This document shows, one piece after another, positions 4,316 to 61,432 of a stretch of 64,000 nucleotides of DNA; position 1 is the first letter of the stretch; the number at the start of each line of letters is the position of its first letter. The stretch comes from a virus: IMG/VR virus record IMGVR_UViG_3300037264_007554, positions 31,494 to 95,493 of that record; one strand, given 5' to 3'. The notes beneath the pieces were generated by a model, which had not been told where the DNA came from, made no database searches, and worked only from the letters and a program-made list of their open reading frames with translations. Position numbers and translations under genes: made by a program.

Positions 4316-4316
4316 G

Positions 4317-5826: not shown

Positions 5827-6324
5827 CTAGGACAGGAAGTTCGAGCCGAAGGCGCCGAGCAGCTCGACATCGGGGACGCCACCGGCGCCACTCATGTCTT
5901 GCTCGGGGACCACGGTCCCGAACATGCCGGTCGAGCCCGAGCCCGAATCCAGCAACTGCACGTCACCCGCCGGGACACCGGTGTTGGCACCGAAGTACCC
6001 CGCCAGCTCCTGCTCGGGCGTGATCACGCCGAGGTAGCCCTGCATCGGGCCACCCATGACCATGTCCTCGATCTGGCGGGGGATACCCACCAGCGCGGCC
6101 GTCGCCAGGCCCTGGATGCCCATGCGCCGGTAGCGCGGCGAGAACATCAGTCCCGCCGAGATCCCGCCGCCGAGCAACGTGCCGATCAGGCCCGCCCACT
6201 TGGTGATGGGTTTGCCCTTGAAGAGCATTTTGGTCGCCAGCATGCCCACCTGAGCAGCGCCGCCGCCGATCAGCGGACCTGCCAGGTCTTCGCCGACTCC
6301 CTCGAAATCTCCGAAGTCATCCAT
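5827..6324 (-). CDS. Gly-rich virion membrane/scaffold protein
   Basis: Strong RBS; TM segments; repeated FG/LG/MSG motifs. Confidence 0.6.
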   Translation of the reverse strand: MDDFGDFEGVGEDLAGPLIGGGAAQVGMLATKMLFKGKPITKWAGLIGTLLGGGISAGLMFSPRYRRMGIQGLATAALVGIPRQIEDMVMGGPMQGYLGVITPEQELAGYFGANTGVPAGDVQLLDSGSGSTGMFGTVVPEQDMSGAGGVPDVELLGAFGSNFLS

Positions 6325-6384
6325 TGGTGTTGTTTCCTTCTTGAAAAATTTGTTGCTGGTTTGGGGTTTTGGGTTTCGCGAGAA

Positions 6385-6474
6385 CTAGCGGCGAGCGCGC
6401 TTGTTCTTCAGGCACTGGCCCTTGCGGCGGCCGCGCTTCACGATTCCGAACTTGCAGTGTCGCTTCCTTGCCAT
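6385..6474 (-). CDS. 29-aa protamine-like basic protein with 2 Cys
   Basis: MARKRHCKFGIVKRGRRKGQCLKNKRARR; RBS GAGGAG; below ORF-track cutoff. Confidence 0.7.
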   Translation of the reverse strand: MARKRHCKFGIVKRGRRKGQCLKNKRARR

Positions 6475-6519
6475 GCCGATCTCCTCTGTTGTTGGTTGAT
6501 TTTCTCGGACAAAAATTTT

Positions 6520-7071
6520 CTAGCTGATCGCCGCCCGGGACGTGATGATCTGGCCGTCCTTGTCGCGCTGGTAATCGGCCGACGGGATGCTGGCGTAGCC
6601 GCGCCTCCGGAGCGCGTAGAGAGCCACGGCCGCGGCGCCCACGCCTGCGACTCCGCCCACGATCGCGCCGCGCGTGCGGCTGTCCGGCGCACCGAAGATC
6701 CCGCCGAGGATTCCGACGACCGCACCGACACCGGCACCGAGGATCCAGTGCTTCTTGTCGATCGTCCCGACCACTGCCCCTGCCTCGCCGAAGCCGGAGT
6801 AGCCGAAGCCGTTGATCGGCGCGACACCCGGCTGCATTGCCACCGGTGCATTCGTCACGCCCTGAACGTGCCGCTCGGAGATGTCCTGACGCGCGTTGAT
6901 CGGATTGAACGGCGAGATGACGCCCGTTCGCATGACGAACTGAGGAATCGAATCCATGTCGCTGTGTCCGAATTGTCCTTGCAGCACCGTTGAACCTTTC
7001 CAGCGGCCAAAAGCAAAACGGCGTCCGACACGAGCCTTCTCGTGAGGGACGCCGTTGTCTACGGTCGCCAT
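6520..7071 (-). CDS. Putative virion membrane protein
   Basis: First gene of capsid operon; two Gly-rich TM segments; FG motifs. Confidence 0.55.
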   Translation of the reverse strand: MATVDNGVPHEKARVGRRFAFGRWKGSTVLQGQFGHSDMDSIPQFVMRTGVISPFNPINARQDISERHVQGVTNAPVAMQPGVAPINGFGYSGFGEAGAVVGTIDKKHWILGAGVGAVVGILGGIFGAPDSRTRGAIVGGVAGVGAAAVALYALRRRGYASIPSADYQRDKDGQIITSRAAIS

Positions 7072-7106
7072 GGGTTGTGCCCCCTGCGAGAGCACTATGT
7101 ACCAAG

Positions 7107-7189
7107 AGGATTACAGGGCTATTTCCCGGCTGTCAAATTAAGCGGACCGCTATTTTGCGTGCGTTGCAAAATCGGCCTACTGTTTCGAC
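7107..7189. promoter_or_regulatory. Divergent promoter pair
   Basis: Minus strand taatTTGACA at 7131-7140; plus strand TTGCGT-N17-TACTGT-N6-ATG(7190). Confidence 0.6.
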
Positions 7190-7444
7190 ATGCGTGGCTC
7201 GATCTCCCAGAGCATCATCGGCAAACTGACCGAAGCCGAAGTTCCAGTTCCGTTCTGGAAATTCGCAGTACCGATCGTCGCAGGCAGCGTGGCCGGGAGA
7301 GGCGCCGCCTACCTCGTCAAGAACACATTCGTGGAATCATCCCCACGCACGCAAGAAACCGCCAGCATCGTCGCGGGCATTGCTGCCTTCTGGATCGTTG
7401 CTGGCGGCACCTGGATCGCACTGTCGCCGAAGCGCGGCGCCTGA
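7190..7444 (+). CDS. Small membrane protein
   Basis: Two hydrophobic segments; leaderless promoter. Confidence 0.55.
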   Translation: MRGSISQSIIGKLTEAEVPVPFWKFAVPIVAGSVAGRGAAYLVKNTFVESSPRTQETASIVAGIAAFWIVAGGTWIALSPKRGA

Positions 7445-7457
7445 GCGGCGCGCGCGG

Positions 7458-7631
7458 CTATCTGCGCTTACCGCGGCGGCCGGAGCGGCAGCGGTTGAAG
7501 CCCTTGAAGCAGCTTCGGCCGGTCTGCGGGCTCAGCGCGGGCCCCGACTTCAAGCAGCTCTTGAGCGCGGTCTTGCAATGAGCGGGAGCGCTTGCTCCTC
7601 CGCGGCCGGACTTTCTTCGACGACGTGCCAT
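7458..7631 (-). CDS. 57-aa basic twin-CX6C protein
   Basis: MARRRRKSGRGGASAPAHCKTALKSC..SCFKGFNRCRSGRRGKRR; paralog at 23125-23271. Confidence 0.7.
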   Translation of the reverse strand: MARRRRKSGRGGASAPAHCKTALKSCLKSGPALSPQTGRSCFKGFNRCRSGRRGKRR

Positions 7632-7643
7632 GGTGATTCTCCC

Positions 7644-9374
7644 TTACGCGGTTCTGAGACGCCGACGTGGCGCCGATCGGTATCCACTCTGCGACTTTTT
7701 TCCGCGGAACGCAAAATAGCCGATCGTTCCGAGACCGATCACGCCCACACCGGCGGCGATGTAGTGCCAGACCGGACGCTTCCCTTGTACTGCTTGCGTG
7801 GCTGCCTGCGCCTGTTCCACCTGCGCCGCAGCCGCCTGCGTCTCCTGCGTCGCCTGCGCGACTGCTTCTTTCGCTTGTGCTTCCTGTGCAGGTGTTGTCG
7901 CCTGCGCTGCAGCAGCCTGCGCTACAGCCTGCGCAGCCAGTGCCCGATCCATCTGTGCCTGTGCCGCTGCTTCCTGGGCCTTCGCCGCCGCTACCGCCTC
8001 CGCCTCCGCCCGTGCCTGCGCGGCCGCGGCCGCAGCCTGCTCTGCTGTGGGCAACTGCTCCGCGGGAACCGCCGGTGTCTGAGCAGGTGTCGTGGCCGTG
8101 GCCGCCACGATCTGATCGGGCTCCGGAGAAGGCTTCGGAACTTCCGTCACCTGTGTCGGAGTCTCACCACACTCTGCAATCCTTGCCGCGAGGTTGTTCG
8201 CAATACTTTCAGCCTTGGCCGACACCTGCGCGATCGAGTACCCGGGGCTCAGACCGGTGTGAGGTAGCTTGGAACAGGGCCCCACGTCACTCAACGCTCT
8301 GTTCACGGCCGCCGTCGTCTTCGGACCGTTGATCCCGTCAACGGGAACAGTCAGACCTGGATCTTTTGCGAGCAGTGCAAGCTGCCCGAGGCTCTGCTGG
8401 ATCTGTGTGATCGCTGCCGAGCGCGAAAGCCCAGGCTTCGGAGCTGCTGCCGGGAGCTTCGGCGGTTTCACACCGAGTTGTGCCAGATGTGCTTCGACGA
8501 TCTTCGCAATGCTCTCCGCATTCATCACGATGTCGGACTGGCTCAACATGCCCGTACGAAACTGCGAAGGCGCAGTCGCGATGCTCGCCAACGCTCTGTT
8601 GACGGCGGTCGCCGTCTTCGGTCCGATCAAGCCGTCGGCACCGATCTGCAAGACCTTGTCGCCGAGCTTTTTGCCGAGCGCTGCGATTGCCTGCTGCAAC
8701 CGCTGCACGGTCGGCGACTTGGTAGGCTTGGACGGAGCCGGAGCCACCGGCTTCGTCACTATCGAAGCCTTCGCATTGGCCTCGCTCGTGATCGAAGTGA
8801 CGATGTTCGGGTTCGTCAGATCCGCGGCCGTCACCTGACGCGAGTACACGCCATAAGACGACACGGCCTTGTTCACGGCCGCGACCGTCTTCGGACCGAC
8901 AGCACCATCGGCCGCAATCATCAAGGTCTTGTCCCCGATCTTGCTGCCGAGCGAACGCAACGCATTTTGCATCGCCTGCACCTGAGAGCGACTCGCGCCT
9001 GCGGCCGGTCTCTTCGGCGCGACGGCCGGTGCAGCGGCTCGCGGAGCCGTTGTCGTGAGCAACTGTTTCGACCCAGGAGCGCTCCGGCTCGCGGCAGCCG
9101 ATTCGATCGCGCTCGAAAGAGGAGCTGCATTTTGCGAGACGTTCAACGGCGTGAGTTTGCCGGTACGCAGACTGGCGGGCGCCGTCGTCACGTACTTCGT
9201 CATCGCGCGATTCACGGCCGCCGCGGTCGCGGGCCCTGTGATCCCGTCGGCGTTGACCGCGAGAGCGGTATCGTTGACTGCAAAACCGAGAAGCGCGAGA
9301 GCGCGTTGCAAACGCGCGACGGCTGGCGAAGAGGCAGCGCCGAAACCGTAACCCATGAAGTGCTGGGACAACAT
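7644..9374 (-). CDS. Protein with four peptidoglycan-binding-like repeats and C-terminal TM anchor
   Basis: Four LQxAL..LG..DG..GPxTxxAVN repeats, Ala/Gln stalk, TM plus basic tail. Confidence 0.75.
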   Translation of the reverse strand: MLSQHFMGYGFGAASSPAVARLQRALALLGFAVNDTALAVNADGITGPATAAAVNRAMTKYVTTAPASLRTGKLTPLNVSQNAAPLSSAIESAAASRSAPGSKQLLTTTAPRAAAPAVAPKRPAAGASRSQVQAMQNALRSLGSKIGDKTLMIAADGAVGPKTVAAVNKAVSSYGVYSRQVTAADLTNPNIVTSITSEANAKASIVTKPVAPAPSKPTKSPTVQRLQQAIAALGKKLGDKVLQIGADGLIGPKTATAVNRALASIATAPSQFRTGMLSQSDIVMNAESIAKIVEAHLAQLGVKPPKLPAAAPKPGLSRSAAITQIQQSLGQLALLAKDPGLTVPVDGINGPKTTAAVNRALSDVGPCSKLPHTGLSPGYSIAQVSAKAESIANNLAARIAECGETPTQVTEVPKPSPEPDQIVAATATTPAQTPAVPAEQLPTAEQAAAAAAQARAEAEAVAAAKAQEAAAQAQMDRALAAQAVAQAAAAQATTPAQEAQAKEAVAQATQETQAAAAQVEQAQAATQAVQGKRPVWHYIAAGVGVIGLGTIGYFAFRGKKSQSGYRSAPRRRLRTA

Positions 9375-19879: not shown

Positions 19880-21028
19880 ATGAAAACAGTTCTCAGTTTC
19901 GGGATGGGCGTCGACAGCGCGGCGATCTTGCTGCGTTGGCTCGATGATCCGGCCTCGCGCGACTTCGACCTCGCCGACCTCATCGTCATCACGGCCATGA
20001 CAGGCGACGAATTCGAGCAGACCCGCATCGACTGTGAAACCCACATCCTGCCGCGCCTGCGGGCCGCTGGCGTGCGTTTCGTGCAGGTCGCGCGCGGCAA
20101 CCGCCAGGGCATGCTGGCCGTCCTTGACGACAGCCGCGCGCCCCAGGCAGTGCTCCTCGAAGGTTGGTACAAGCTGTCGCAGGAATGGGAGGAGTCCGGC
20201 ACCATCCAGGCCACGGCTGGACAGCGGCTGTGCAGCATCCACGCCAAGGGCGAGATCCTCGACAAGTGGCTGCTGCAGGAGTTCGGCAACCAGCCGTTCC
20301 GCCACGTGATCGGGTTCGAGTGCAACGAGACCGGCCGCCGCGACAAGGACGCAGCCCAAACGCGCGCGACCCAGCCGGACAAAGCCAACCGGATGCCGAA
20401 CAGAGTTCCCTGCTACCCGCTCATCGACTGGGCATGGGACCGGCAACGCTGCATCAACTACATCGCTTCGGTGACGAGCGCGGCCTGGGAGAAATCCTGC
20501 TGCGGCTACTGCCCGTTCGCCGGACAAAACAAGGCCGGGCGCGCGGACTTCGTGCGCCGCTTCCGCCGCGAGCCGGACCGCGCGGCGCAAGCGATCTGGC
20601 TCGAACACAACGCCCTGGCCTTCCACGACGGCATGAAGCTCTACAAGACCACCACCGTGCGCCAGGTGTGCAAGGATGAAGGTCTCACCGACGGGCTGAA
20701 GTTGTTCGACGAGAAGCTCGCGGCCGTCTCGGAGTGGTCCGTCTACCGCGTCGGCCGCGTCTACAACGGTGCGGCCGTGCCGCCCCGCTCGATTGTGAAA
20801 GAGGGCACCGGCAGCCGCGCGGCGATGCTGTCGCTGCTCTCGACGTTCGGACAGGTCGAAGTGGACGAACACGACCACCACCGGGTTCACCTTTCGCACA
20901 GGCCCGCACCAAAGCGTCAAGGCGTCGAGGAATACCTCGTGGTGGCCCCGGCGCACGTGCACGAGAAGACGAACAAGGCGTTCGTGAACGCGCGGGCAAG
21001 GCTGGCGGGGCTCGTGGTCGCGGCCTGA
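19880..21028 (+). CDS. PP-loop adenine nucleotide alpha-hydrolase (PAPS reductase-like)
   Basis: SFGMGVDS, RLCS..AK, YPLIDW, KSCCGYCPF. Confidence 0.7.
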   Translation: MKTVLSFGMGVDSAAILLRWLDDPASRDFDLADLIVITAMTGDEFEQTRIDCETHILPRLRAAGVRFVQVARGNRQGMLAVLDDSRAPQAVLLEGWYKLSQEWEESGTIQATAGQRLCSIHAKGEILDKWLLQEFGNQPFRHVIGFECNETGRRDKDAAQTRATQPDKANRMPNRVPCYPLIDWAWDRQRCINYIASVTSAAWEKSCCGYCPFAGQNKAGRADFVRRFRREPDRAAQAIWLEHNALAFHDGMKLYKTTTVRQVCKDEGLTDGLKLFDEKLAAVSEWSVYRVGRVYNGAAVPPRSIVKEGTGSRAAMLSLLSTFGQVEVDEHDHHRVHLSHRPAPKRQGVEEYLVVAPAHVHEKTNKAFVNARARLAGLVVAA

Positions 21029-25459: not shown

Positions 25460-25831
25460 GTGACGATAGGCGAAACGGGATGGCAGCCGATCCGGCCGAC
25501 CGGCGGCGACGGCGACCGCGGCGCGGCCGGAAAAGTCGAAATGATCTCCGGCCTTGAGGACCGGCCCTGCGTGATGTGCAAGTCCTGGGAATACGACGTG
25601 CCGAAGCTCATCCGGCACTTGATGTCGAAAAAACTCACGCTGCTGCCCAACGGGCACTTCCTGACGCCGATCGCCAAAGACTTCCCCGGCCGGAAGTCCC
25701 TCATCCTCGATCCGGTGAAAAACGGCTTCTGCCGTTACGAGTGTAGCGTGACGGAGGATCTTGCTACGTGTGAAAATTGGAACCCTGTGCGTACAGTTTC
25801 CGAGCTACAGAGCCGACTCAAACGCCGATGA
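25460..25831 (+). CDS. Hypothetical Cys-containing protein
   Basis: TTGACG-N18-TACAAG-N6-GTG; CVMC motif. Confidence 0.55.
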   Translation: MTIGETGWQPIRPTGGDGDRGAAGKVEMISGLEDRPCVMCKSWEYDVPKLIRHLMSKKLTLLPNGHFLTPIAKDFPGRKSLILDPVKNGFCRYECSVTEDLATCENWNPVRTVSELQSRLKRR

Positions 25832-26151
25832 TACAGCTACAGCAAGTCGCCCTGTTCGCGATCCTGTGCGCCGTCATCCACTGGTTCGTCGCACGGTCGT
25901 CGATCATGCGTTGGTTCTGGGGCCGGGCCACCGGTTGGCTTGCGGAATTGCTTGTCTGCCCCGCTTGTTTTGGATTCTGGACTGGCCTGCTGCTCGATGT
26001 TACAGGTATATCACCGCTCGGACCGTCGCAGCACTGGGGCGAAGTGCTGCTGTCCGGAGCGCTCGGGCTTTTCTTCACCCCGCTCGCGGAGGCCCTGCTT
26101 CTCTGGGGGATCGACAAGGCGGCCGTGCGCGAGGCGCCGCCCGAGGGCTAA
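25828..26151 (+). CDS. Membrane protein with CPAC motif (DUF1360-like)
   Basis: LAELLVCPACFGFW at the start of a TM helix; three hydrophobic segments. Confidence 0.65.
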   Translation: MIQLQQVALFAILCAVIHWFVARSSIMRWFWGRATGWLAELLVCPACFGFWTGLLLDVTGISPLGPSQHWGEVLLSGALGLFFTPLAEALLLWGIDKAAVREAPPEG

Positions 26152-28433: not shown

Positions 28434-28798
28434 CGGCAAGTACGCCAGCGGTTCCAGTCCGTTTTCGGAACGAGCACGTCGATGTCCCGGTCCCCGCGCA
28501 GGCGCGCAGCAGCTCCGCGGTGGTTCCCGTTCCACACGAACAGCGTGGTGATCCGGCGGCGGCAGGCGCGCTCTCCGTAAGACGCCAGCACTGCGGGAAA
28601 TGGTGTCTTTCGCGCGGCGTACGCGGCGACGCGGCCTACATCAGCAGGCTCGTGAATGTCCAACGCGTCCAGTGGAAGCCGAATGCGCACATGGGGCTCG
28701 TCTCTGACACGTGCGATCGTCGCAGGTCTGCCGTGCTTGCCTCCGGTGTCCGTCCGTGCGACGTGTCGGCGCACTTTCGATGCAGGAACGATCCGCAT
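28430..28798 (-). CDS. Basic ParB/Srx-like protein with 2 Cys
   Basis: VWNGNHRGAAARLRG motif; TGATG coupling. Confidence 0.55.
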   Translation of the reverse strand: MRIVPASKVRRHVARTDTGGKHGRPATIARVRDEPHVRIRLPLDALDIHEPADVGRVAAYAARKTPFPAVLASYGERACRRRITTLFVWNGNHRGAAARLRGDRDIDVLVPKTDWNRWRTCR

Positions 28799-29151
28799 CA
28801 GCACTTCCGCCAGAGCGTCACGCCGCCCGGCCGGACGACGGCGTAGAGGCCGCCGTGCACCGGTTTCTTGCCCTTCCGGGTGACGAAGGTCTTGTACTTG
28901 TACGGATCGTACGTGACGGCGATTTTGCAAGCGCCGCGCGGGGCGCCCTTGCTCGTCAGCGTTCCGCGCACGAAGGCGTGGACGTTCTTGCGCTTCTCTC
29001 GCAACACACGCGCGCGGCCGCCCGCGCCGACCACGAACTTCGGCGTCAGCAAGGCGACCTTCTGCGAGCACTTCTGCACGCGGCCGCCCTTACGGACGCT
29101 GATGCAGCCCTTGTGCAAGTTGCGGTAGGCGTCGACGGTCACGGCAGCCAT
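28798..29151 (-). CDS. Basic phage protein with 4 Cys
   Basis: YRNLH..RVLREKRKNVHAFVRG..YDPYK. Confidence 0.65.
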   Translation of the reverse strand: MAAVTVDAYRNLHKGCISVRKGGRVQKCSQKVALLTPKFVVGAGGRARVLREKRKNVHAFVRGTLTSKGAPRGACKIAVTYDPYKYKTFVTRKGKKPVHGGLYAVVRPGGVTLWRKC

Positions 29152-53124: not shown

Positions 53125-53221
53125 TTCGACAGGATGCGGCGGATAACCCATCGCGGTCAAATTGCGGCTCAACTCGGGCGGGACTTGCTACGCGTGTAAC
53201 ACTTATGCGAGAGTGAAAAGC

Positions 53222-53740
53222 GTGCAGATCGTTCGTCTTCGTGACTTGATCGTCCTCTCAGGGGCACCCCACCGGGAGGGCGGCGCGGTCACCGAAAAGC
53301 GTGACGCGACGGCCCCGGAGAATGGTCCAAACGGGGACGACGTCGTGGTTACGAACCAGAGTCGGAGGATCTCCAAGGCCAGGCGCGCGGCCGACACGTT
53401 CGTGGTCTCGTACAGCCGGAAGTTGCGCAAAGATCGGCTGCTCTGGACGCCTTTCGGCGCTCTCTACGATCCGAGCGTGCTTGAGAAATTGCAGGCGTTG
53501 CTGGCCGTGATGACCAAGGAAGCGGCCGAGTTCAACGCTTATCAGTCCGGTGGGTCGGGGGACTGCAAGATCCGGAACTACCTGCTCTGGGAGCCGCTGC
53601 GCGACACGCGCAAGGCTGCCGTCGAGGGCTGGATTACACGGCAGATCATGGACGGTGATCCGGAGGCGACGGCCGCGCTGCCGAAGCTCGTGGCGGCCTC
53701 ACGTGAGCTTCCCGAGCAGCTTCCCGATGTCCGCGTCTGA
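53222..53740 (+). CDS. Hypothetical protein
   Basis: ORF with plausible composition. Confidence 0.55.
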   Translation: MQIVRLRDLIVLSGAPHREGGAVTEKRDATAPENGPNGDDVVVTNQSRRISKARRAADTFVVSYSRKLRKDRLLWTPFGALYDPSVLEKLQALLAVMTKEAAEFNAYQSGGSGDCKIRNYLLWEPLRDTRKAAVEGWITRQIMDGDPEATAALPKLVAASRELPEQLPDVRV

Positions 53741-53956
53741 GATTGCGCCGATGCGCTTGGTGACGGTCCCGGCGCTGTCGCGCACGACCGTGGTCGGAGT
53801 GGCCTTCACGCCCAGGCGGTCGGCTAGCGCGGCCGCGCGCCGGTCGCGAGAGACATCGAGAATCCGCGCACCCCGAAACGCTTTCCGAAACCTGGGCACG
53901 TATTCGTGGCAGGCAGGGCAGCCGGTCATGACGAACACGAGAACAGCGGGGGCCAC
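53699..53956 (-). CDS. Thioredoxin-fold oxidoreductase (CPAC)
   Basis: VLVFVMTGCPACHEYVP..LGVKATPTTVV..GA; no signal peptide; TTGCGC-N18-CAAATT-N6-GTG. Confidence 0.85.
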   Translation of the reverse strand: MAPAVLVFVMTGCPACHEYVPRFRKAFRGARILDVSRDRRAAALADRLGVKATPTTVVRDSAGTVTKRIGAISDADIGKLLGKLT

Positions 53957-54002
53957 TCCGGTAATTTGACCACGGGCGGGGTGGGAGCGCAATCTAGGCC
54001 CT
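53957..54002. promoter_or_regulatory. Interdigitated divergent leaderless promoters for thioredoxin and the array
   Basis: Plus: taatTTGACC-N18-CAATCT-N7-GTG(54003); minus as given for the thioredoxin. Confidence 0.65.
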
Positions 54003-54335
54003 GTGGGTGCGCGCTGTCTGACTCTGGTGAAGTTGCGGCTCAAGAACAAATGGGCGGGCTACGGGACCGTCCACACCGCAGGCAAGTTCAGAGGGCTCGA
54101 TCTGGAAGTTCCACATTCGGAGTTGGCCATGCACACCCGGGCCGCAGGCAAGAAGTTGATCGCCTGGGCATGCAAGCCGTCCGGCCGCGAGTGCGGCATC
54201 GTGTTCGCCGAGCCGAAGGGCGGTTGTGGAGACACGTTCGGACTTCCGACCGAGGTGCTGCCTCACGGGGTTCTGCGCAGGATGGGCGGGCCCGCGGCGC
54301 GGAGCCTTTCCGGGGCTCACCGGAGGCGGCGATGA
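54003..54335 (+). CDS. Array protein 1 (basic, 4 Cys)
   Basis: Ends LSGAHRRRR. Confidence 0.7.
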   Translation: MGARCLTLVKLRLKNKWAGYGTVHTAGKFRGLDLEVPHSELAMHTRAAGKKLIAWACKPSGRECGIVFAEPKGGCGDTFGLPTEVLPHGVLRRMGGPAARSLSGAHRRRR

Positions 54336-54505
54336 AGCGTAAGATCTGTGACCCGTGGGCGGCGCGATTTCTTCGTCGGACGATGTTCAACGATATCAAG
54401 ATCGCTCGTGCCAACAAGGTGTTTACGGACAAGGACATCACGGATCTGCGGAGAACGGCATTTCGGATGCTGAGTGCGTGCAAGCGCCGTCGGAGAAGAC
54501 GCTGA
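54332..54505 (+). CDS. Array protein 2 (2 Cys)
   Basis: MKRKICD..ACKRRRRRR; ATGA coupling. Confidence 0.7.
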   Translation: MKRKICDPWAARFLRRTMFNDIKIARANKVFTDKDITDLRRTAFRMLSACKRRRRRR

Positions 54506-54714
54506 TGCCTTACATCGTCCTCAAGAAGAACGGCAAGAAAGAGCATCCGTCGTTCTTGTTTTTGGAACGCGACGTGGTGAACCTCGCGCGTGATCGGAAG
54601 AACTGCTACACGCTCATGAACACGACGACCCGCCGAACACGGAAAGTCGGCATGTGCAACGGGGTTTCGGCCGGGCTCAACGGGTCTCGAAGGCGTCGTC
54701 GGAGGAAGCGCTGA
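54505..54714 (+). CDS. Array protein 3 (2 Cys; paralog of protein 14)
   Basis: Ends LNGSRRRRRRKR; TGATG coupling. Confidence 0.7.
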   Translation: MPYIVLKKNGKKEHPSFLFLERDVVNLARDRKNCYTLMNTTTRRTRKVGMCNGVSAGLNGSRRRRRRKR

Positions 54715-54971
54715 TGGCGAAATACCAGATCCAGGTCGGCCGTTGTCAGGGAGCTTTCCACACGCGCTATTCACTGGACAACCACTTTTCCGCTGAAATG
54801 TATTACCGCGGCCTCAACGTGGGCCGAGGGTACAAGAAACGGATCAAGGAAGACGGTAGAGTCATCGCCAAGACTGCGCCGGACATGGACTACTGCCCTT
54901 CACCTTCATCAAAACGCGCTGAACGTGTTTCTTTTCTGGGCGGTGCGCGTCGCCGCCGGAGGAAGCGCTGA
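54714..54971 (+). CDS. Array protein 4 (2 Cys)
   Basis: Ends FLGGARRRRRKR. Confidence 0.7.
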   Translation: MAKYQIQVGRCQGAFHTRYSLDNHFSAEMYYRGLNVGRGYKKRIKEDGRVIAKTAPDMDYCPSPSSKRAERVSFLGGARRRRRKR

Positions 54972-55240
54972 TGGCTCTCTATCGTCTGAAAGTCTGGACA
55001 GGGCCGGTGGGGGTCGTCGAGATCGGACGAAAAGTTCGTCGCGCCGGTCTCAAGAGCTACACCACGGGTACAGAGCACATCTACGTCGACGTGAAGGGTC
55101 AGTCCTGCGACGGGGCCGCGTGGAACATGCGGGCGCAGTTGTTCAGGAAGTACCGCAACGATTTCGGTCTGAGGGCGGTGTCGTGTCACATACGGAAGAA
55201 GTCCCGGCGAGCGCCGATGAGTTTCGGGTGGCGCAGATGA
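54971..55240 (+). CDS. Array protein 5 (2 Cys)
   Basis: Ends SFGWRR. Confidence 0.7.
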   Translation: MALYRLKVWTGPVGVVEIGRKVRRAGLKSYTTGTEHIYVDVKGQSCDGAAWNMRAQLFRKYRNDFGLRAVSCHIRKKSRRAPMSFGWRR

Positions 55241-55575
55241 AACGGCGCCGGAAAATCCGCCTCGGGTCTACTTCGGCTGAACACGAGGAACGTGCTGCGT
55301 ATCATCGCGGGAGCGCGGAGCACGCAATCACGCGCGGTTTGCAAGCCCTCGAAGACATGAACTGCTCGCGAGCGTTCAGTGAATTTGCAAGCGCGAAGTT
55401 GTATATCGGGGAGTACGAAGCGCACATGGCATCGGCTGGAAAGGCGTCGAGCCACGAACGCATTTCCGGCAAGATCATGGACATTCATCGTCTCGAAGTA
55501 GACATCGGACGGATGTGTCTTCGTCCCAAGTCGGATTTCGTTGTGCGGAAACAGAAGGGCAAGGGGCAGAACTGA
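55237..55575 (+). CDS. Array protein 6 (2 Cys)
   Basis: Starts MKRRRKIRLGS. Confidence 0.7.
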   Translation: MKRRRKIRLGSTSAEHEERAAYHRGSAEHAITRGLQALEDMNCSRAFSEFASAKLYIGEYEAHMASAGKASSHERISGKIMDIHRLEVDIGRMCLRPKSDFVVRKQKGKGQN

Positions 55576-55796
55576 TGGCCAAGTCTTGCAGCTTGTGGAT
55601 TCGTGAACACCGGCCTTCCGGCTCGGCGCCCTGGGTGCGCCGTTGTACTTTCGGGGACCGCGCCGAGATCGTTTCGGGTGGTTCATATTTCACGTACAAC
55701 GTCTACAAGGACAATACGTTCGTCAAACGCGGCAGCACGAAGTCGTTAACGGCCGCAAAAACTGCGGCGTCGCGGATCTTGGGGAGGCGGCGTTGA
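55575..55796 (+). CDS. Array protein 7 (2 Cys)
   Basis: Ends ILGRRR. Confidence 0.7.
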   Translation: MAKSCSLWIREHRPSGSAPWVRRCTFGDRAEIVSGGSYFTYNVYKDNTFVKRGSTKSLTAAKTAASRILGRRR

Positions 55797-56110
55797 TGAA
55801 ACGTGCCCGTTCACATTTTGGTCAGCCAGCGGCCACCCGCCCGCTCAAGACCTACGGCTACCCGAAGAAGACGCCGATGGGCTGGGCGCTCACCGACGGG
55901 CACGGCAACATCATCGGCCGCGGGAAGTTGAACGAGTGCCACAAGATCCGGCCCGGGGCTCCTGGGTCTTGGATCGATTCCAAGCGCTGTAGCTACCACT
56001 TCAAGATCGCGGGCGCGGCCGGGAAGGCGAAGTGGTACTCGTGCCGAGGGTACGGTGAGGGGATCGCGGTGTCGTGCCGCCGGATGAAAAAGCCGCCGAG
56101 GTTCTCATGA
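55796..56110 (+). CDS. Array protein 8 (4 Cys)
   Basis: Starts MKRARSHFG. Confidence 0.7.
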   Translation: MKRARSHFGQPAATRPLKTYGYPKKTPMGWALTDGHGNIIGRGKLNECHKIRPGAPGSWIDSKRCSYHFKIAGAAGKAKWYSCRGYGEGIAVSCRRMKKPPRFS

Positions 56111-56340
56111 AGAAGAAGTGGATTCGCACCGATCGTCCGTACGGATCTGAACATATGGACGCAGGCCGCTGCGGCGGCCGTATTCGCCAGCTTACCGGGC
56201 GTTCAAAAGCGTACGAATGGTCGTCGTGGATTGGAGAGCCCGGCAGCCGTGTGCTTCACAACAACGGTTTGGTCAGGACGAAGGCGAGTGCGAAACGTGC
56301 TGCGGAAAGAAGCTGCGCACGTCTGACGGGGAGACGCTGA
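56107..56340 (+). CDS. Array protein 9 (2 Cys)
   Basis: Ends LTGRR. Confidence 0.7.
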   Translation: MKKKWIRTDRPYGSEHMDAGRCGGRIRQLTGRSKAYEWSSWIGEPGSRVLHNNGLVRTKASAKRAAERSCARLTGRR

Positions 56341-56594
56341 TGGCGACGCGCGGCCGAATGAAAGGTATCTCGAACCGAGTGCTCTGCAAGCTCGGTACGC
56401 TGTCGCACAACCGGCAATTCTCCTCGCGGGATTTTGTCGATTACACTGGCGAGGCCCCGACGCAACTTCGCGTGTTGATGAAACGCGGCATTGTTGAACA
56501 GAGTAGAGAGGGTTTGTACGCGGTTCGCAGCTACTACCCGACGCGCCGCGGGTGGGACATCATCGAGCGCGCGTGCAGGATCGGATACAAATGA
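56340..56594 (+). CDS. Array protein 10 (2 Cys, winged-helix-like)
   Basis: LRVLMKRGIVE..YYPTRRG. Confidence 0.7.
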   Translation: MATRGRMKGISNRVLCKLGTLSHNRQFSSRDFVDYTGEAPTQLRVLMKRGIVEQSREGLYAVRSYYPTRRGWDIIERACRIGYK

Positions 56595-56794
56595 CGAAGC
56601 GCGCGGCCTGGTACGCCATCGCAACGAACGCGGGGTTCGTCGTCAAGAAGACGCGCAACCCGAAGATCCGTGGCGGCCGCTACGCGTTCGGGCCGTACAA
56701 GACCAAGGGAAAAGCCTGCCAGGTCGGCATGTACCAGCGCCATGGTAATGTGCCGAGAGGGTGCGAAGGCGTGTCGGTCCGGAGGGACAACTGA
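56591..56794 (+). CDS. Array protein 11 (2 Cys)
   Basis: FGPYKTK motif; coupled. Confidence 0.7.
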   Translation: MTKRAAWYAIATNAGFVVKKTRNPKIRGGRYAFGPYKTKGKACQVGMYQRHGNVPRGCEGVSVRRDN

Positions 56795-57057
56795 TGGCGA
56801 AGAAAAAATTGGCAGTCAGAAGTTGCGATGCCTACTACGGCGTGTCCGTCGAGCAGGTGAAAAATTACTTGGCGCGGAAAGGCGCCGGGCACGTTCACCG
56901 CAAGCGTTTCCTGCGAGACGCGAAGTTCCAGCAGTCGGGCAAGTCCGTGCTCGCGGAAACCGGGCGCCCGCACTCGTCGGATTGGGATCAGACCTTGTAC
57001 CGTTGCGAGTACGGACGAATCGTCGGGTACGCGGACTACCGAGGATCGTTGCGCTGA
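56794..57057 (+). CDS. Array protein 12 (2 Cys)
   Basis: TGATG coupling. Confidence 0.7.
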   Translation: MAKKKLAVRSCDAYYGVSVEQVKNYLARKGAGHVHRKRFLRDAKFQQSGKSVLAETGRPHSSDWDQTLYRCEYGRIVGYADYRGSLR

Positions 57058-57197
57058 TGGCCATGACCTGCGTAGAATACAACCGCGGCTACGGCTGGGA
57101 AAGTCTCGGCTGCTTCCGTAAACGCAAACAAGCCTTCAAAAAAGCCAGGAAGATTCGCATGAAGGGCTACAAAAAAGTACGCGTGAGGGCTTACTGA
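57057..57197 (+). CDS. Array protein 13 (2 Cys)
   Basis: MAMTCVEY..GCFRKRK. Confidence 0.65.
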   Translation: MAMTCVEYNRGYGWESLGCFRKRKQAFKKARKIRMKGYKKVRVRAY

Positions 57198-57409
57198 TGA
57201 CGAAGTCACGCGGCCTCTTCATCGTTTTCAAGGGCAAGAAACGCTTGTCCAACAACGTCGCCGGGCGTGTGTCCCCGTACGTCTGGAAGAAAAGCGAGGT
57301 TCGCAAGCTCGCGGCGCGCAACCCACGCGTCTGCTACAAGCTCGGCAACATCGACACGCAGCGGGTTTCGTACGTCGGCGCGTGCAAGCGCCGTCGGAGG
57401 AAACGTTGA
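57197..57409 (+). CDS. Array protein 14 (2 Cys)
   Basis: Ends VGACKRRRRKR. Confidence 0.7.
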   Translation: MTKSRGLFIVFKGKKRLSNNVAGRVSPYVWKKSEVRKLAARNPRVCYKLGNIDTQRVSYVGACKRRRRKR

Positions 57410-57681
57410 AGAAAAAAGATCCGCCCGACTGTCGTATCTCCTCCTCATTTCCAGATCAGAGACTCATTTTCAAATCTCGATCCGGCAATCACGCTTTGTG
57501 GACGTACCGGCGTTCGGATACTGGAAAAGAACGTGCGGCGGTAGCCATCAACTGCCTGAGTGGCTTCACAGATTATCCGATTAGATACGACGACGGCGGT
57601 GTAGGCTGGGACCGTCCAGAGGCGTTTCCTGCTTCTTTTCGCAAAAGCGTTCAGCGCATGTTTGGTCGGAGGAAGCGCTGA
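57406..57681 (+). CDS. Array protein 15 (2 Cys)
   Basis: TTG start after GGAGG; ends MFGRRKR. Confidence 0.65.
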   Translation: MKKKDPPDCRISSSFPDQRLIFKSRSGNHALWTYRRSDTGKERAAVAINCLSGFTDYPIRYDDGGVGWDRPEAFPASFRKSVQRMFGRRKR

Positions 57682-57941
57682 TGCGCGTGCTTAAGGGCCA
57701 AGTTTTTCCGGGGCAGTCTGTCTGCATCCGCAAGAATCAACGTGTGCAAGTGGGTGCGCAGACACGAATTGGCGCTGTCCAAGAGTTCAAGAAACTCAAG
57801 CACGAGGTTTGCGGTGTTTTGGCCAGGGTCGGGGGACAGGGCGCGTGGGTTCACATGCCACAGGGAGAGTTGCTGTTTTCTCCGTGGAAATCTGTTTTTG
57901 TTCGACGCGGTAAACGCAAAGTTAGCTTGAGGGTGGTGTGA
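57681..57941 (+). CDS. Array protein 16 (2 Cys)
   Basis: TGATG coupling. Confidence 0.7.
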   Translation: MRVLKGQVFPGQSVCIRKNQRVQVGAQTRIGAVQEFKKLKHEVCGVLARVGGQGAWVHMPQGELLFSPWKSVFVRRGKRKVSLRVV

Positions 57942-58021
57942 TGGCCAAGCGCCGCCGTATCACGCTCGGCAATGCTCCGAAGCGCGGCCTGTCCGGGGCT
58001 CGTCGTCGGAGGCGTCGTTGA
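57941..58021 (+). CDS. Array protein 17 (26 aa, no Cys)
   Basis: MAKRRRITLGNAPKRGLSGARRRRRR. Confidence 0.6.
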   Translation: MAKRRRITLGNAPKRGLSGARRRRRR

Positions 58022-58338
58022 TGGCGAAGAAATGCAGCATTGCGCAGACCAAGCAGTATGCTGCCAATCAGGTAGCGCATGGTGGAGAGCGCATGGCATT
58101 TGGTGTTCTGCAACAACGTGTGGCACGGCTGGGGTACAAGCTGCAGCGTGAGCACAGCTACCACAACAACTACAACCCGCCCGAGTGCTGGCGTGCGGCC
58201 AGTTTTACGACCATCGATCGCGAAACAGGTAAAAGTTTTGCGCATTACCAGGGCCGCCGCGATGCACGTTATCAAGAGTTGCAGCGTCTTCGACGCTACG
58301 CCGTTGTGCTGCACCGCGGGCGTCTGGTGGAGTTCTGA
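58021..58338 (+). CDS. Array protein 18 (2 Cys)
   Basis: TGATG coupling. Confidence 0.7.
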   Translation: MAKKCSIAQTKQYAANQVAHGGERMAFGVLQQRVARLGYKLQREHSYHNNYNPPECWRAASFTTIDRETGKSFAHYQGRRDARYQELQRLRRYAVVLHRGRLVEF

Positions 58339-58529
58339 TGGTAAAGCGCGCGGCTTGCAAGGTGGTTTTCGACAGGGACAACCGTTCGGCATTTTTGATG
58401 TCGAAGTCCGGTTACGTCCTCAACGCGATCAACTACGACCCGGGACACTGGCCGTCGAAAACCGAAAAGATTCGCGATCGTCGCAAGCTCATGCGTGGAT
58501 GCGAGGAGTTGTTGCGGAGGCATTTCTGA
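58338..58529 (+). CDS. Array protein 19 (2 Cys)
   Basis: TGATG coupling. Confidence 0.7.
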   Translation: MVKRAACKVVFDRDNRSAFLMSKSGYVLNAINYDPGHWPSKTEKIRDRRKLMRGCEELLRRHF

Positions 58530-58741
58530 TGGCTCGACGTCGCAAACTCACGCACTGCACGGTCAAGGATTATCTTCGCGCGCAAGGCATCGATTTCTCT
58601 CGGGACTTTTTTGTGCTTCCGTCGAGAGATGTCGGGCTGATCGTAGATGGCGCCAAGGCGGCTGGATACCGCAAGAGCAAGAACGCCCCAGGCTCTACCG
58701 GCCGGATGTACTTCAGCCTTTTGCAACGGAAGTCTTGCTGA
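58529..58741 (+). CDS. Array protein 20 (2 Cys)
   Basis: MARRRKLTHC..LQRKSC. Confidence 0.7.
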   Translation: MARRRKLTHCTVKDYLRAQGIDFSRDFFVLPSRDVGLIVDGAKAAGYRKSKNAPGSTGRMYFSLLQRKSC

Positions 58742-59010
58742 TGTCGCTGCGTAAAATCCACACCACGCGCGTCGGCCGGTGCTCGGTAGGGATCTACCGC
58801 GACTCCGAGTACGGCGAGTTCGTGGTCAAGAGCGTCGGCGCGGGCAAGGACACCGGCTACTTCACGAGCGACAAGCCCGACGCGCGCAGCACGGCCGCGT
58901 TTTTGGTTCGGCGTTTGCGCAAGGACAAGAGGTGTCGCGGCGAGGAGGGTGCCGTAGATCCGCGAGCTGCGCGTCCGCGGTACATAAAGCCGTGGGGACG
59001 GAGGCACTGA
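58741..59010 (+). CDS. Array protein 21 (2 Cys)
   Basis: IYRDSEYGEFVVK; ends PWGRRH. Confidence 0.7.
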   Translation: MSLRKIHTTRVGRCSVGIYRDSEYGEFVVKSVGAGKDTGYFTSDKPDARSTAAFLVRRLRKDKRCRGEEGAVDPRAARPRYIKPWGRRH

Positions 59011-59228
59011 TGCCGAGGCGCCGCATCTCGACCCAGTATTGCGTCCACACCGGTGTGCCGTCGTGGCACCAGCAGCGCGCCGGGCACGGCTCGGCAGGCG
59101 CGATGTGCTTCTGGATGAAGACCGAGGCGAAGCGGTTTCTTCGTCGGGTGAAGAAGCTGCGGCCTCATGAGCCCGCGTTCATCACCACGAGTCGGAAGCT
59201 GCGTCATTTCGCGGGAGTGCGCCGGTGA
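59010..59228 (+). CDS. Array protein 22 (2 Cys)
   Basis: Ends FAGVRR. Confidence 0.7.
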   Translation: MPRRRISTQYCVHTGVPSWHQQRAGHGSAGAMCFWMKTEAKRFLRRVKKLRPHEPAFITTSRKLRHFAGVRR

Positions 59229-59491
59229 AACACTGTCTGGTTTTTAACTCGACCACACGGGGAAAGCAGACGCGAGTTGATTCGTGTTTCACGACCAAGG
59301 AATACGCCAAGGCTGAAGCGGCACGGCACAATCGAACGGCCGGTTACGGCGGATTTTACTCCGTACACAAGGCGGCAACGATCGCGATGTGGCGCAGATT
59401 GAAGTACGACATGAACTTCGAGGCGCTGGATACGCCGACGTTGGCGGGTGTGCGCTCGCGCCCGCGCCAGCGAAGGGTTGTTCGGCCATGA
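59225..59491 (+). CDS. Array protein 23 (2 Cys)
   Basis: Ends LAGVRSRPRQRRVVRP. Confidence 0.7.
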   Translation: MKHCLVFNSTTRGKQTRVDSCFTTKEYAKAEAARHNRTAGYGGFYSVHKAATIAMWRRLKYDMNFEALDTPTLAGVRSRPRQRRVVRP

Positions 59492-59697
59492 AGTACAAGA
59501 CGTACTACGAAAAAGGCAGCCACCGGCGCGGAACCCACAAGTTCCATCGAGGCGGGCCGTACTCGTCGAAGGAAAGGGCGATCGAGGCCGCTTGCCGTTT
59601 GTCCAAGCGGGTGCGCACCTGGGTATTCGTGGCGAACGCAGGCACGCGGGGATTGACCGTCGCGGCCTGTGCGAACGGGAAGCGCAAGGAACTATGA
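59488..59697 (+). CDS. Array protein 24 (2 Cys)
   Basis: GPYSSK motif; ATGA coupling. Confidence 0.7.
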   Translation: MKYKTYYEKGSHRRGTHKFHRGGPYSSKERAIEAACRLSKRVRTWVFVANAGTRGLTVAACANGKRKEL

Positions 59698-59906
59698 GGC
59701 AGGTATGCAACCGCTCCGTCCATGCGAAGAAGGTCAATGAGATCCGCCGCATGAAATTTCAGGTCGCCCGAGAGTTGCGCCCGTTGTTTGCGCACATTCT
59801 GAAGCTCTCGATCAGCAGCGCCAAGCACGGGTACTGCCAGCGCGCCGGTCAAGAGTTGCGAAAAGCGAAAAACCTGGCGAAAAAATATCCTGCCGTCTGG
59901 AACTGA
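59694..59906 (+). CDS. Array protein 25 (2 Cys)
   Basis: ATGA coupling. Confidence 0.7.
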   Translation: MRQVCNRSVHAKKVNEIRRMKFQVARELRPLFAHILKLSISSAKHGYCQRAGQELRKAKNLAKKYPAVWN

Positions 59907-59907
59907 A

Positions 59908-60165
59908 ATGACCCAACGTCGACGTACCATCAAGTGCCGTGTCGGTGAAAAGCGCTTCACCGTCGTCCGGGTCAACGGCGATCCGTACGACACGCATGCG
60001 GGGCGCAGTTTCGAGCAGGCGATGAGTACGGCTACGCCGGACCGAGGCTCGACTGTCGAAGTCTTCGCGGTCTGCGGCAAAGATCCGGGCGCCGTCCGGC
60101 TGCCGTCCGAGTACGAGAGGCGCGGGCAGCTCCTGCGGACGTTCAAGGCGAAGGGCGGCCGATAG
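59908..60165 (+). CDS. Array protein 26 (2 Cys)
   Basis: Last gene; converges on glycosyltransferase. Confidence 0.7.
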   Translation: MTQRRRTIKCRVGEKRFTVVRVNGDPYDTHAGRSFEQAMSTATPDRGSTVEVFAVCGKDPGAVRLPSEYERRGQLLRTFKAKGGR

Positions 60166-61432
60166 GCCCGTCGGGCGCCCTTTTGTGAAGGTTCGCTCGC
60201 ACGTAGGAAATGTTGTGCTGGCGGTGCCAGGGCGACGGGAAATGGGTGGTCAGTTCGGCCATTTGAAACCGGATGTCGCGATTGCTGATGTACTTGGCCT
60301 GTTCGTCGTGGATCCAGTACCAGAAGGCAGGCTCATTCCAGTAGGACACGTGTGTCGGATCCATGAAGGCTCCGCGGCCGTCGGTCGACGGCGTCTCTGA
60401 CAGGAGCCAGCCGCCCGGCGCCAGACACCGCCATATCTCGGACATCGTGTGCTGCTTGTCGGGTAGATGTTCGAGTAGATCATGGGCGCGGAATGCGAAG
60501 ACGCTCCCATCTTCCCAAGGCCAGCGCTCCCGAAGATCGGCTTCAACACCGTCAGTCCGAGTTTTGTTCGTTTGACTGGCCCAGGTGTTGTCGACAGGTA
60601 TCCAGCCTTCGCGTGGATTGAGAGCACCGCCCAAATCGTAGGCGGGCAGTCCGACGATCTTGGCTTCACGGAGAACCAGAGCCTCGATGTTCTTGCGACC
60701 GAGTTCGGTAGATTTTTCCCGAATTTCGTCGGCACGCGGCGCCCAGGTGTTCCCCTTGTGAATCCGGTAGAGGTAGAGCGGTTTGGGAATGTGAATCATC
60801 TCGGTGTGCAGATACGTCCGTATAAGCAGGTCGTGGTCGTCGCACAGGTCGAAGCCGCCTTTGTGGCCTCCAACTTCCTCGTACCAGGATCGGCGCCAGG
60901 CTCGTATGTGATTCGGTGCCCACAAGATCGTGGAAAGAGATGCGGCCGACGGCCGAAACGATCTAGGACAGAGGTAGGTCTTGCCCGCGATCTCTGCTTC
61001 GTAGAACGTCCAGCCCGAAGCCTCCCAGGCCGCGCGGTTCATTTCGTATGTCTTGCCCTCGAAGTCGGTCCAGTCAGAGTAGAAAAACCCGGCGTTGGGA
61101 TGATTGGTCGCGTATTCGGTCAAGGTTTCGAGAGCAGTCGGTGCGAGCCTGTCGTCGTGATCCAGCTCGATCAAGAGATCGCCTGTGGCTTGTTGGAAAG
61201 CCGCCAGCTTGATCTGTCCGATGCCCCAGTCTCGCGCGGGATGACTTACGACACGAACGCGCTCGTTAGTACCGGCAATGTGTCGACCAAGAACTGCAAT
61301 CTCTTTGGCGTACTGTCCGTTGCAGAAGATGATCCATTCCCAGTCTTCCAGTTTCGTCTGAGACTCGATCGACTCCCAGACTTCCAGAAGATGGAGTGGA
61401 TCGTGCGTGGGGGTGATGAGGGAGAGCTTCAT
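60143..61432 (-). CDS. GT2 glycosyltransferase fused to SAM-methyltransferase-like domain
   Basis: SLITPTH, ELDHDD, DDHDL; DLGG, LLEHL, LAPGGW, DPTH. Confidence 0.85.
   Translation of the reverse strand: MKLSLITPTHDPLHLLEVWESIESQTKLEDWEWIIFCNGQYAKEIAVLGRHIAGTNERVRVVSHPARDWGIGQIKLAAFQQATGDLLIELDHDDRLAPTALETLTEYATNHPNAGFFYSDWTDFEGKTYEMNRAAWEASGWTFYEAEIAGKTYLCPRSFRPSAASLSTILWAPNHIRAWRRSWYEEVGGHKGGFDLCDDHDLLIRTYLHTEMIHIPKPLYLYRIHKGNTWAPRADEIREKSTELGRKNIEALVLREAKIVGLPAYDLGGALNPREGWIPVDNTWASQTNKTRTDGVEADLRERWPWEDGSVFAFRAHDLLEHLPDKQHTMSEIWRCLAPGGWLLSETPSTDGRGAFMDPTHVSYWNEPAFWYWIHDEQAKYISNRDIRFQMAELTTHFPSPWHRQHNISYVRANLHKRAPDGPIGRPSP

Follow-up and report, generated by a model that had tools for sequence, protein, structure and literature searches.

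The stretch of DNA analysed here (the window, 64,000 nucleotides) is the last 64 kb of IMG/VR record IMGVR_UViG_3300037264_007554, a virus record of 95,493 bp with a CheckV completeness of 99%. Its subject is an array of 26 small plus-strand genes at window positions 54003-60165, whose products are 26-112 amino acids (aa) long and mostly contain exactly two cysteines. Rebuilding the chain of genes from the sequence bore out the 26 coupled open reading frames (ORFs) that had been described in an initial annotation of this DNA, together with the signal-less CPAC thioredoxin gene lying back-to-back with them. Elsewhere the genome encodes a family-A DNA polymerase, a primase-helicase, helicases, an exonuclease, a DNA methylase, a topoisomerase and an endolysin with peptidoglycan-binding domains. 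Two relatives are used throughout for comparison: G001, a complete 96.3-kb genome with terminal repeats, and G002, a 41-kb fragment of about 80% identical DNA. The features of the locus are as follows, with ratios of nonsynonymous to synonymous substitution given as dN/dS.

53699-53953, minus strand: thioredoxin-fold protein, 85 aa, CPAC, ATPTT cis-Pro loop, no signal peptide; divergent from the array
53963-54002, plus strand: array promoter, AATTTGAC (-35 TTGACC), 18-nt spacer, CAATCT, ending at the GTG of A01
54003-54335, plus strand: A01, 110 aa, Cys 5, 57, 64 and 75, net charge +13; the G002 ortholog also has four Cys; dN/dS 0.09
54332-54505, plus strand: A02, 57 aa, Cys 6 and 50, Arg tail
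54505-54714, plus strand: A03, 69 aa, Cys 34 and 51, Arg tail; both Cys kept in the G002 ortholog
54714-54971, plus strand: A04, 85 aa, Cys 11 and 61, Arg tail
54971-55240, plus strand: A05, 89 aa, Cys 46 and 72; G002 ortholog 93% identical, dN/dS 0.08
55237-55575, plus strand: A06, 112 aa, Cys 43 and 94; N-terminal basic run, then LGS
55575-55796, plus strand: A07, 73 aa, Cys 5 and 24
55796-56110, plus strand: A08, 104 aa, Cys 48, 65, 83 and 94
56107-56340, plus strand: A09, 77 aa, Cys 22 and 70
56340-56594, plus strand: A10, 84 aa, Cys 16 and 79; winged-helix look by eye
56591-56794, plus strand: A11, 67 aa, Cys 43 and 58
56794-57057, plus strand: A12, 87 aa, Cys 11 and 71
57057-57197, plus strand: A13, 46 aa, Cys 5 and 19
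57197-57409, plus strand: A14, 70 aa, Cys 46 and 63, Arg tail
57406-57681, plus strand: A15, 91 aa, TTG start, Cys 9 and 50; most conserved member, dN/dS 0.12-0.21
57681-57941, plus strand: A16, 86 aa, Cys 15 and 44
57941-58021, plus strand: A17, 26 aa, no Cys; only a basic N-terminal motif (MAKRRRITLGN) and an Arg tail
58021-58338, plus strand: A18, 105 aa, Cys 5 and 56
58338-58529, plus strand: A19, 63 aa, Cys 7 and 55
58529-58741, plus strand: A20, 70 aa, Cys 10 and 70 (the final residue)
58741-59010, plus strand: A21, 89 aa, Cys 14 and 65; phrog_7884; four strands and a helix
59010-59228, plus strand: A22, 72 aa, Cys 11 and 33
59225-59491, plus strand: A23, 88 aa, GTG start, Cys 4 and 21
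59488-59697, plus strand: A24, 69 aa, Cys 36 and 61
59694-59906, plus strand: A25, 70 aa, Cys 5 and 48; dN/dS 0.12
59908-60165, plus strand: A26, 85 aa, Cys 10 and 56; dN/dS 0.16
60150-60190, plus strand: probable terminator, a hairpin followed by UUUUGUG over the A26 stop, common to a convergent glycosyltransferase gene

The array forms a single operon with translational coupling and, by the spacing of its promoter, a leaderless mRNA; it encodes 26 unrelated accessory mini-proteins that are small, soluble and strongly basic. Its 25 junctions consist of 16 overlaps of 1 nt (TGATG type), eight overlaps of 4 nt (ATGA, GTGA or TTGA) and a single 1-nt gap, and a GGAG, GAGG or AGGA core stands upstream of 20 of the 25 internal starts. 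The AATTTGAC motif of the promoter, which is kept in G002, occurs 12 times in the genome, in eight intergenic regions as against 1.3 expected, and in most cases 38-40 nt separate it from the start codon that follows, a spacing that implies leaderless mRNAs. The GTG at 54003 lies 40 nt after the motif, as at other genes of this genome, and this spacing fixes the start of A01, and hence its count of four cysteines. Genome-wide, the motif is accompanied by a TAnnnT-like -10 element, for example at window positions 53963, 51610, 49411, 11525, 10318 and 7139, and the same motif serves the capsid-module operon as well as the array. Scanning the array for sigma-70 and terminator consensus sequences gave nothing above background, and the hairpin at its end (-25.9 kcal/mol, z = -1.7) is weak evidence of termination. 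That the array genes are real is indicated by dN/dS values of 0.08-0.56 across 12 ortholog pairs.

The junction DNA CGGAGGAAGCGCTGATG is reused at several places in the array, where the upstream frame reads Arg-Arg-Lys-Arg-stop and two of the Arg codons make up the Shine-Dalgarno sequence GGAGG. Since the junction carries the Shine-Dalgarno sequence within Arg codons, the Arg tails, which 11 of the 26 proteins have, reflect the protein only in part and are otherwise a by-product of the ribosome-binding site. Thus the Arg richness emphasised in the initial annotation holds in so far as all 26 proteins are basic, but the tails that contribute to it are absent from the other 15. Between relatives, the array genes are reshuffled like cassettes at the reused junction. 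A17 has the look of an 'empty cassette' left by recombination at such junctions.

The array proteins carry net charges of +8 to +20, a mean of +0.18 per residue as compared with +0.035 for the other small proteins of the genome, and no hydrophobic segment was found in any of them (highest 18-residue Kyte-Doolittle mean, 1.09), so that the description of basic proteins without signal peptides stands. They had also been called mostly unrelated in sequence, and we agree: descent from a common paralog was considered and rejected, as comparing the 26 proteins with one another by BLASTP and aligning them with MAFFT revealed common Arg tails only. Pfam and PHROG searches with all members returned no Pfam family and one PHROG match, that of A21. 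A weak AbiEi_4 match (E 0.09) came from one unnamed member, and its attribution to A10 would be a guess. Some members (A06, A17 and relatives), not all, share a basic run followed by LG[SN], and no conserved leader of a ribosomally synthesised and post-translationally modified peptide (RiPP) appeared in the alignment of the 26 proteins, nor a modifying enzyme nearby.

Against this background of unrelated sequences, the number of cysteines is strikingly regular. Twenty-three genes encode exactly two, A01 and A08 encode four and A17 none, so that no count is odd, precisely as first reported. With a null model built from the cysteine frequency of the array (2.6%) and the lengths of the proteins, the probability that at least 23 of 26 contain exactly two cysteines is 2.4e-11 and that of all counts being even is 2.9e-8; in 2 million redistributions of the cysteines, at most 18 genes received exactly two. 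In contrast, proteins outside the array with at least one cysteine divide into 62 even and 62 odd. Chance is therefore excluded as the source of the pattern, and the suspected non-randomness of the parity is real. A DNA-level motif was looked for around the cysteine codons of the array, and none was found. The two cysteines are far apart. Their separation in 38 two-Cys families, drawn from the array and those of G001 and G002, is 14-69 residues and never below 14, which none of 200,000 null simulations matched, and the mean fractional separation is 0.476 as against 0.333 expected (P = 1.7e-4). This spacing leaves no CxxC or CxxH zinc knuckles, in line with the initial view that the pairs are not of the zinc-binding type; three members contain no histidine at all. 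In ortholog alignments, cysteine faces cysteine at 35 positions and another residue at only two, both of which belong to an extra pair in the G001 ortholog of A11, where the same two cysteines are joined by an additional pair (C-x3-C and C-x4-C). Judged from these sequence comparisons, the even-Cys rule is one of paired cysteines, under selection at the level of the protein.

The same rule was found in related genomes. The G002 array has a mosaic make-up: its 21 genes differ in part from those described here and stand in another order; 18 of them encode two cysteines, two encode four and one encodes three, while every array gene of G001 is even. Pooled with the present array, these make 60 proteins in 45 BLASTP families: 38 with two cysteines, five with four, one with none and one with three. 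Six further genomes of 89-122 kb were fetched with the capsid gene as anchor, and one uniform gene call was made on all nine. Among proteins of 40-130 aa, the soluble and basic class (n=251) has exactly two cysteines in 53% of cases and an even-to-odd ratio of 169:49, whereas for other small proteins (n=489) the figures are 14% and 140:198. Families seen in at least two genomes are those most surely real genes; among them, the basic ones are even in 26 cases, odd in two and Cys-free in none, and the others divide 15:14 (Fisher 8e-4). The census yields about 200 families of small basic proteins, and basic two-Cys mini-proteins are scattered elsewhere in the lineage genomes, beyond the array. 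As the rule holds across the nine genomes taken together, the array is best seen as the densest local cluster of a lineage-wide class, and the long run of basic genes beside the thioredoxin gene is particular to this genome and G002. Small basic Cys-pair proteins are thus a hallmark of an uncultured lineage of bacterial viruses with 89-122-kb genomes and a jelly-roll capsid. A scan of IMG/VR for the junction pattern was abandoned as a way of finding relatives, since its hits were mostly chance single matches, although G001 came from it. The nearest isolated phages share at most 28% identity in PolA and have no match to A15, which has three homolog clusters among 5.8e9 proteins; a search for host clues in prokaryote genomes gave matches of only about 30% identity. 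Relatives of A06 in G001 and in two other contigs, L133 and L142, have cysteines at matching places.

A21 is the sole array member with homologs outside the lineage (phrog_7884), and it allows the pair to be compared with its absence. Four homologs occur in tailed Pseudomonas phages, three of them Cys-free and one with a single, non-aligned cysteine; homologs lacking the pair in tailed phages, which the initial annotation had suggested looking for, thus exist. Among 32 representatives of the family drawn from 1.8 billion proteins, 22 have both cysteines, eight have neither, two have the second only and none has the first only. Pair-bearing members have net charges of +5 to +19, whereas Cys-free members, including the Pseudomonas-phage homologs, are neutral or acidic. 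From this comparison, it seems that a fold which already existed acquired its basic charge and its Cys pair jointly. In the AlphaFold2 model of A21 (predicted local distance difference test score, pLDDT, 84), Cys14 lies at the start of strand 2 and Cys65 comes after the helix. A Foldseek search of this model against the PDB gave no significant match, and the ESM Atlas gave leads only, with weak PUR, AP2 and WGR-like rows. From their charge and this weakly PUR/WGR-like model, we infer that the array proteins may bind nucleic acid.

The most economical reading of the pair is an intramolecular disulfide, to which we give a probability of roughly 45%. Strict evenness, long-range spacing, conservation and the joint presence or absence of both cysteines all favour a pair formed within one chain, and the counting of even cysteine numbers is an accepted proxy for disulfides (PMC3177088). 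Each mini-protein would then be built round one long-range Cys pair, occasionally two, and a single staple would hold together a domain whose small size and high charge would otherwise make it unstable. Oxidation might be carried out by a virus-encoded thiol pathway, or might occur upon leaving the cell if the proteins are in virions. Candidate parts of such a pathway would be the core thioredoxin-like CxxC protein and perhaps a CxxC membrane protein:

25828-26151, plus strand: CxxC membrane protein, 107 aa, about three transmembrane (TM) segments; Arg-rich loop, then CPAC where a TM helix begins

The thioredoxin-like gene matches Pfam Thioredoxin_2 (PF13098) with E = 7e-6 and 26.8 bits, just below the cut-off of 27, or 27.2 bits when neighbouring in-frame matches are included, and its homologs in G001, G004 and G005 exceed the cut-off. 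Its product also has weak matches to PDB thioredoxins. The family is rare (five clusters among 5.8e9 proteins), but each of the nine lineage genomes has a member, with CPAC, CHFC, CAAC or CGAC and an invariant ATPTT; P54 and T56 are invariant in the alignment, and a more distant homolog in G003 has CEAC and VPAT. Further homologs are found in L142, a metagenome contig of 116 kb on which the capsid gene of the lineage also occurs, and in the phage L133, of 196 kb. The linkage between thioredoxin and array that had been proposed holds at the level of a core gene, but not of adjacency: in this genome and G002 the gene is divergent from the array, in G001 it is found on the opposite side, about 1 kb past the end of the array, and in G009 and L142 it adjoins the capsid module, in the former far from the main run of basic-protein genes. 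A CxxC in the membrane protein (CPAC or CAGC) is found in seven of eight complete lineage genomes; this protein has no Pfam match, and in contig L147 its gene lies two genes downstream of a thioredoxin-like gene. The CPAC shared by the two proteins was dropped as a link between them, since the thioredoxin dipeptide varies (CHFC, CAAC, CGAC) and its identity in this genome is meaningless. Complex prediction for the two proteins scored 0.00, which is no verdict and counts neither for nor against. A role of the thioredoxin as partner of a ribonucleotide reductase was also discarded, as no such reductase is encoded. A PAPS (phosphoadenosine phosphosulfate)-reductase-like gene (19880-21028, plus strand, phrog_424) might encode an ordinary client, this family being normally thioredoxin-dependent. 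The 3' ends of the thioredoxin-like gene and of a convergent gene for a 175-aa protein (53213-53740) share 42 nt (53699-53740), and the two genes are neighbours in G001 and G010 too.

Several points weigh against an intramolecular disulfide. A thioredoxin in a reducing cytoplasm normally reduces, and the host cytoplasm should be reducing here, because the fraction of the residues I, V, Y, W, R, E and L (IVYWREL) in the proteome, 0.371-0.382, points to a mesophile. No Erv1/ALR oxidase (PF04777) was matched in this genome (99% complete) or in G001 (100% complete), so that the poxvirus-like pathway suggested at first is not supported in that form. One array protein (B09) has three cysteines, and 49 of the 251 basic small proteins are odd in the automated census, of which gene-calling errors may explain part. 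Finally, the co-occurrence of the two cysteines in the A21 family (Fisher 4e-6) is left uncorrected for phylogeny.

Of the other explanations, the one that survives best is that of the initial annotation, namely that the phage thioredoxin oxidises the array proteins in the cytoplasm and that they are packaged with DNA as stapled, redox-releasable core or effector cargo. We regard it as possible but unlikely. What speaks for it lies mainly in the capsid module and in the type of virion that this module suggests:

4938-5699, minus strand: major capsid protein (MCP) candidate, 253 aa, Cys-free, AlphaFold2 jelly-roll model, pLDDT 75
6385-6474, minus strand: protamine-like peptide, 29 aa, net charge +14, Cys 7 and 21, among capsid-module genes

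The capsid model is nearest to SPV1 (VIA-align Z 8.4), P23-77 VP16/17 (7.0) and SH1 (6.7), followed by HCIV-1 and PRD1-type proteins; these Z values are modest, yet the matches form a consistent set of internal-membrane viruses, and SPV1 virions hold a nucleoprotein core (PMC8459092). The genome has no recognisable terminase, portal or HK97-type capsid gene. The capsid candidate has at least 197 homolog clusters of 60-98% identity on contigs of 60-132 kb. Together with the capsid model, this suggests a large and seemingly undescribed group of bacterial viruses that probably lack a tail and contain a membrane, and whose genomes are unusually big. Beside the capsid gene in six genomes lies a peptide of 29-32 aa with a net charge of +14 to +17 and both cysteines conserved, a candidate DNA-condensing core peptide on sequence grounds. 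The same neighbourhood has a small TM protein whose basic tail ends in CxCGR. Basic two-Cys genes are interspersed in the structural module of L142, and five consecutive capsid-module proteins of 97-273 aa (3857-7071, minus strand) have no cysteine, their G001 counterparts being nearly Cys-free, as expected of proteins in oxidising surroundings. The status of the thioredoxin-like gene as a core gene also agrees with packaged cargo. On the evidence of the capsid module, basic Cys-pair proteins could plausibly be part of the virion in this lineage, but that evidence concerns the structural module and not the array. The array of G001 continues a replication-gene operon, and the hypervariable content of the arrays and of the wider class (45 families in three genomes, about 200 in nine) is typical of accessory or arms-race genes and not of structural components. 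Moreover, no single targeting signal is common to all 26 proteins, and the variable position of the thioredoxin gene and the missing Erv-type oxidase count against this explanation as well. No prohead protease was identified.

It is quite unlikely that the two cysteines are instead metal ligands (Zn, Fe or Fe-S), each chain contributing a half-site that a second copy or a partner completes, with dimerisation or a nucleic-acid clamp as the result. Exactly two thiols per chain would suit a bridging half-site too, the A11 ortholog of G001 contains C-x3-C and C-x4-C, and oxygen may be scarce where several relatives live, their MCP homologs coming from metagenome-assembled genome (MAG), sediment or aquifer-type records. 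However, the spacing of at least 14 residues throughout the 38 families, the His-free members and the lack of any evident conserved His, Asp or Glu partner do not favour metal binding, and a half-site with one cysteine would serve a dimer equally well, so that strict evenness would be unexplained.

A third possibility is that the pairs stay reduced and act as reversible thiol switches or thioredoxin clients, so that a host-takeover activity follows the redox state of the infected cell. The conservation of a CxxC thioredoxin-like protein with no ribonucleotide reductase to serve fits such a role, and the location of the array resembles an early or accessory gene region. Yet about 200 unrelated families would need the same regulation, and neither the coupling of the pair to high basicity nor the fact that conserved basic families are never Cys-free would be explained, which makes this very unlikely. 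Ordinary causes are hardly credible: high-GC DNA yields many spurious ORFs and crenarchaeal viruses show a genome-wide even-Cys bias (PMC3177088), but chance is excluded statistically, the genes are under purifying selection and common to several genomes, a single diverged two-Cys paralog family is contradicted by the absence of detectable paralogy and by widely differing Cys positions and spacings, and a thermophile-type disulfide habit is inapplicable because the composition is mesophilic and the genome-wide parity it also predicts is absent from the rest of the proteome.

Returning to an intramolecular disulfide, it is worth considering which known systems the array proteins would resemble. 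That an even cysteine number is a disulfide signature is already known, from exports and from hyperthermophiles and their viruses, as is virus-encoded cytoplasmic oxidation, from poxviruses and giant viruses. Exported bacterial proteins, oxidised by DsbA/DsbB or VKOR, show an even-Cys bias. The array shares this parity signature with them, and the genome has a thioredoxin-fold CxxC protein and a CxxC membrane protein; unlike in those systems, both the clients and the thioredoxin-like protein have no signal peptide, and the membrane protein, which has about three TM segments and only one CxxC, predicted to face the cytoplasm, differs from the two-pair DsbB and VKOR. The internal proteins of T4 (IPI-III) have a shared, cleavable capsid-targeting sequence and no Cys rule. 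Like them, the array encodes small basic proteins in a hypervariable, cassette-like locus, and by analogy packaging and injection would be a plausible role; unlike them, its 26 proteins have no common leader. Mammalian protamines are Arg-rich and cross-linked by disulfides, and such intermolecular cross-linking needs no even count. Among the proteins described here, it is the 29-aa two-Cys peptide by the capsid gene that best fits the Arg-rich DNA condensers (protamines, adenovirus core proteins and the SPV1 core), whereas these are one or a few abundant species and the array consists of 26 different, folded-looking proteins.

In the cytoplasmic disulfide pathway of poxviruses and other nucleocytoplasmic large DNA viruses (NCLDVs), the Erv1-type oxidase E10R, A2.5L and the thioredoxin-like G4L act on a few membrane proteins. 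The present lineage resembles these viruses in having a thioredoxin-fold CxxC core gene (a likeness at the level of fold only), a jelly-roll capsid and paired cysteines in cytoplasmic viral proteins, and the analogy is less far-fetched because the capsid models as an internal-membrane-type jelly roll; it differs in the absence of an Erv1/ALR homolog and in having about 200 families of basic mini-proteins instead of few membrane substrates. One could imagine that the lineage runs its own thiol-oxidation relay, in which the cytoplasm-facing CxxC membrane protein and the thioredoxin-like protein replace the Erv-type oxidase, each mini-protein would receive one disulfide, the proteins would enter the membrane-lined capsid along with the DNA, and reduction in the next host would set them free, but as a whole this scheme is rather improbable. 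In the hyperthermophilic archaeal viruses SSV1, STIV and SIRV, signal-less proteins, many of them small DNA binders, prefer even cysteine numbers, which has been read as stabilisation by disulfides (PMC3177088). The array proteins are likewise signal-less viral proteins with even numbers. In the archaeal viruses, however, the bias is proteome-wide and goes with hyperthermophily and a host protein disulfide oxidoreductase (PDO), while the array genome is mesophilic and evenly divided in the rest of its proteins, and the rule here is limited to small basic proteins and stricter, with mostly exactly two cysteines. Our literature search found no description of a rule confined to about 200 small-basic families in mesophilic bacterial viruses with CxxC core genes and no Erv oxidase.

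Should the pairs prove to be disulfides, stapled signal-less proteins would be made or used by a mesophilic bacterial virus, contrary to the usual assumption that cytoplasmic phage proteins are kept reduced, and a trait of giant eukaryotic and hyperthermophilic archaeal viruses would extend to bacterial viruses. The two conserved CxxC proteins would then be candidate parts of a new thiol pathway, and the mini-proteins would illustrate how minimal domains can be stabilised in nature by one staple each. In any case, a simple signature (small, basic, two distant cysteines) marks about 200 otherwise unannotatable families in a lineage that is large (at least 197 capsid-protein clusters, contigs to 132 kb) and appears undescribed.

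Some minor observations concern other cysteine-containing proteins of the lineage. At 28798-29142 (minus strand), the window encodes a 114-aa protein with a net charge of +24, four cysteines and a high coding score, which is kept in G002. In the 196-kb contig L133 (IMGVR_UViG_3300037483_000793), positions 7104-8273 hold a mini-cluster of four basic two-Cys genes including A21 and A06 homologs, and a homolog of the rare thioredoxin-like family lies about 48 kb from it. At 1073-1225 (minus strand), the window encodes a 50-aa TM protein with a basic tail ending in DCNCGR, and a C-terminal CxCGR recurs in G006, G008, G009, G010 and L142.

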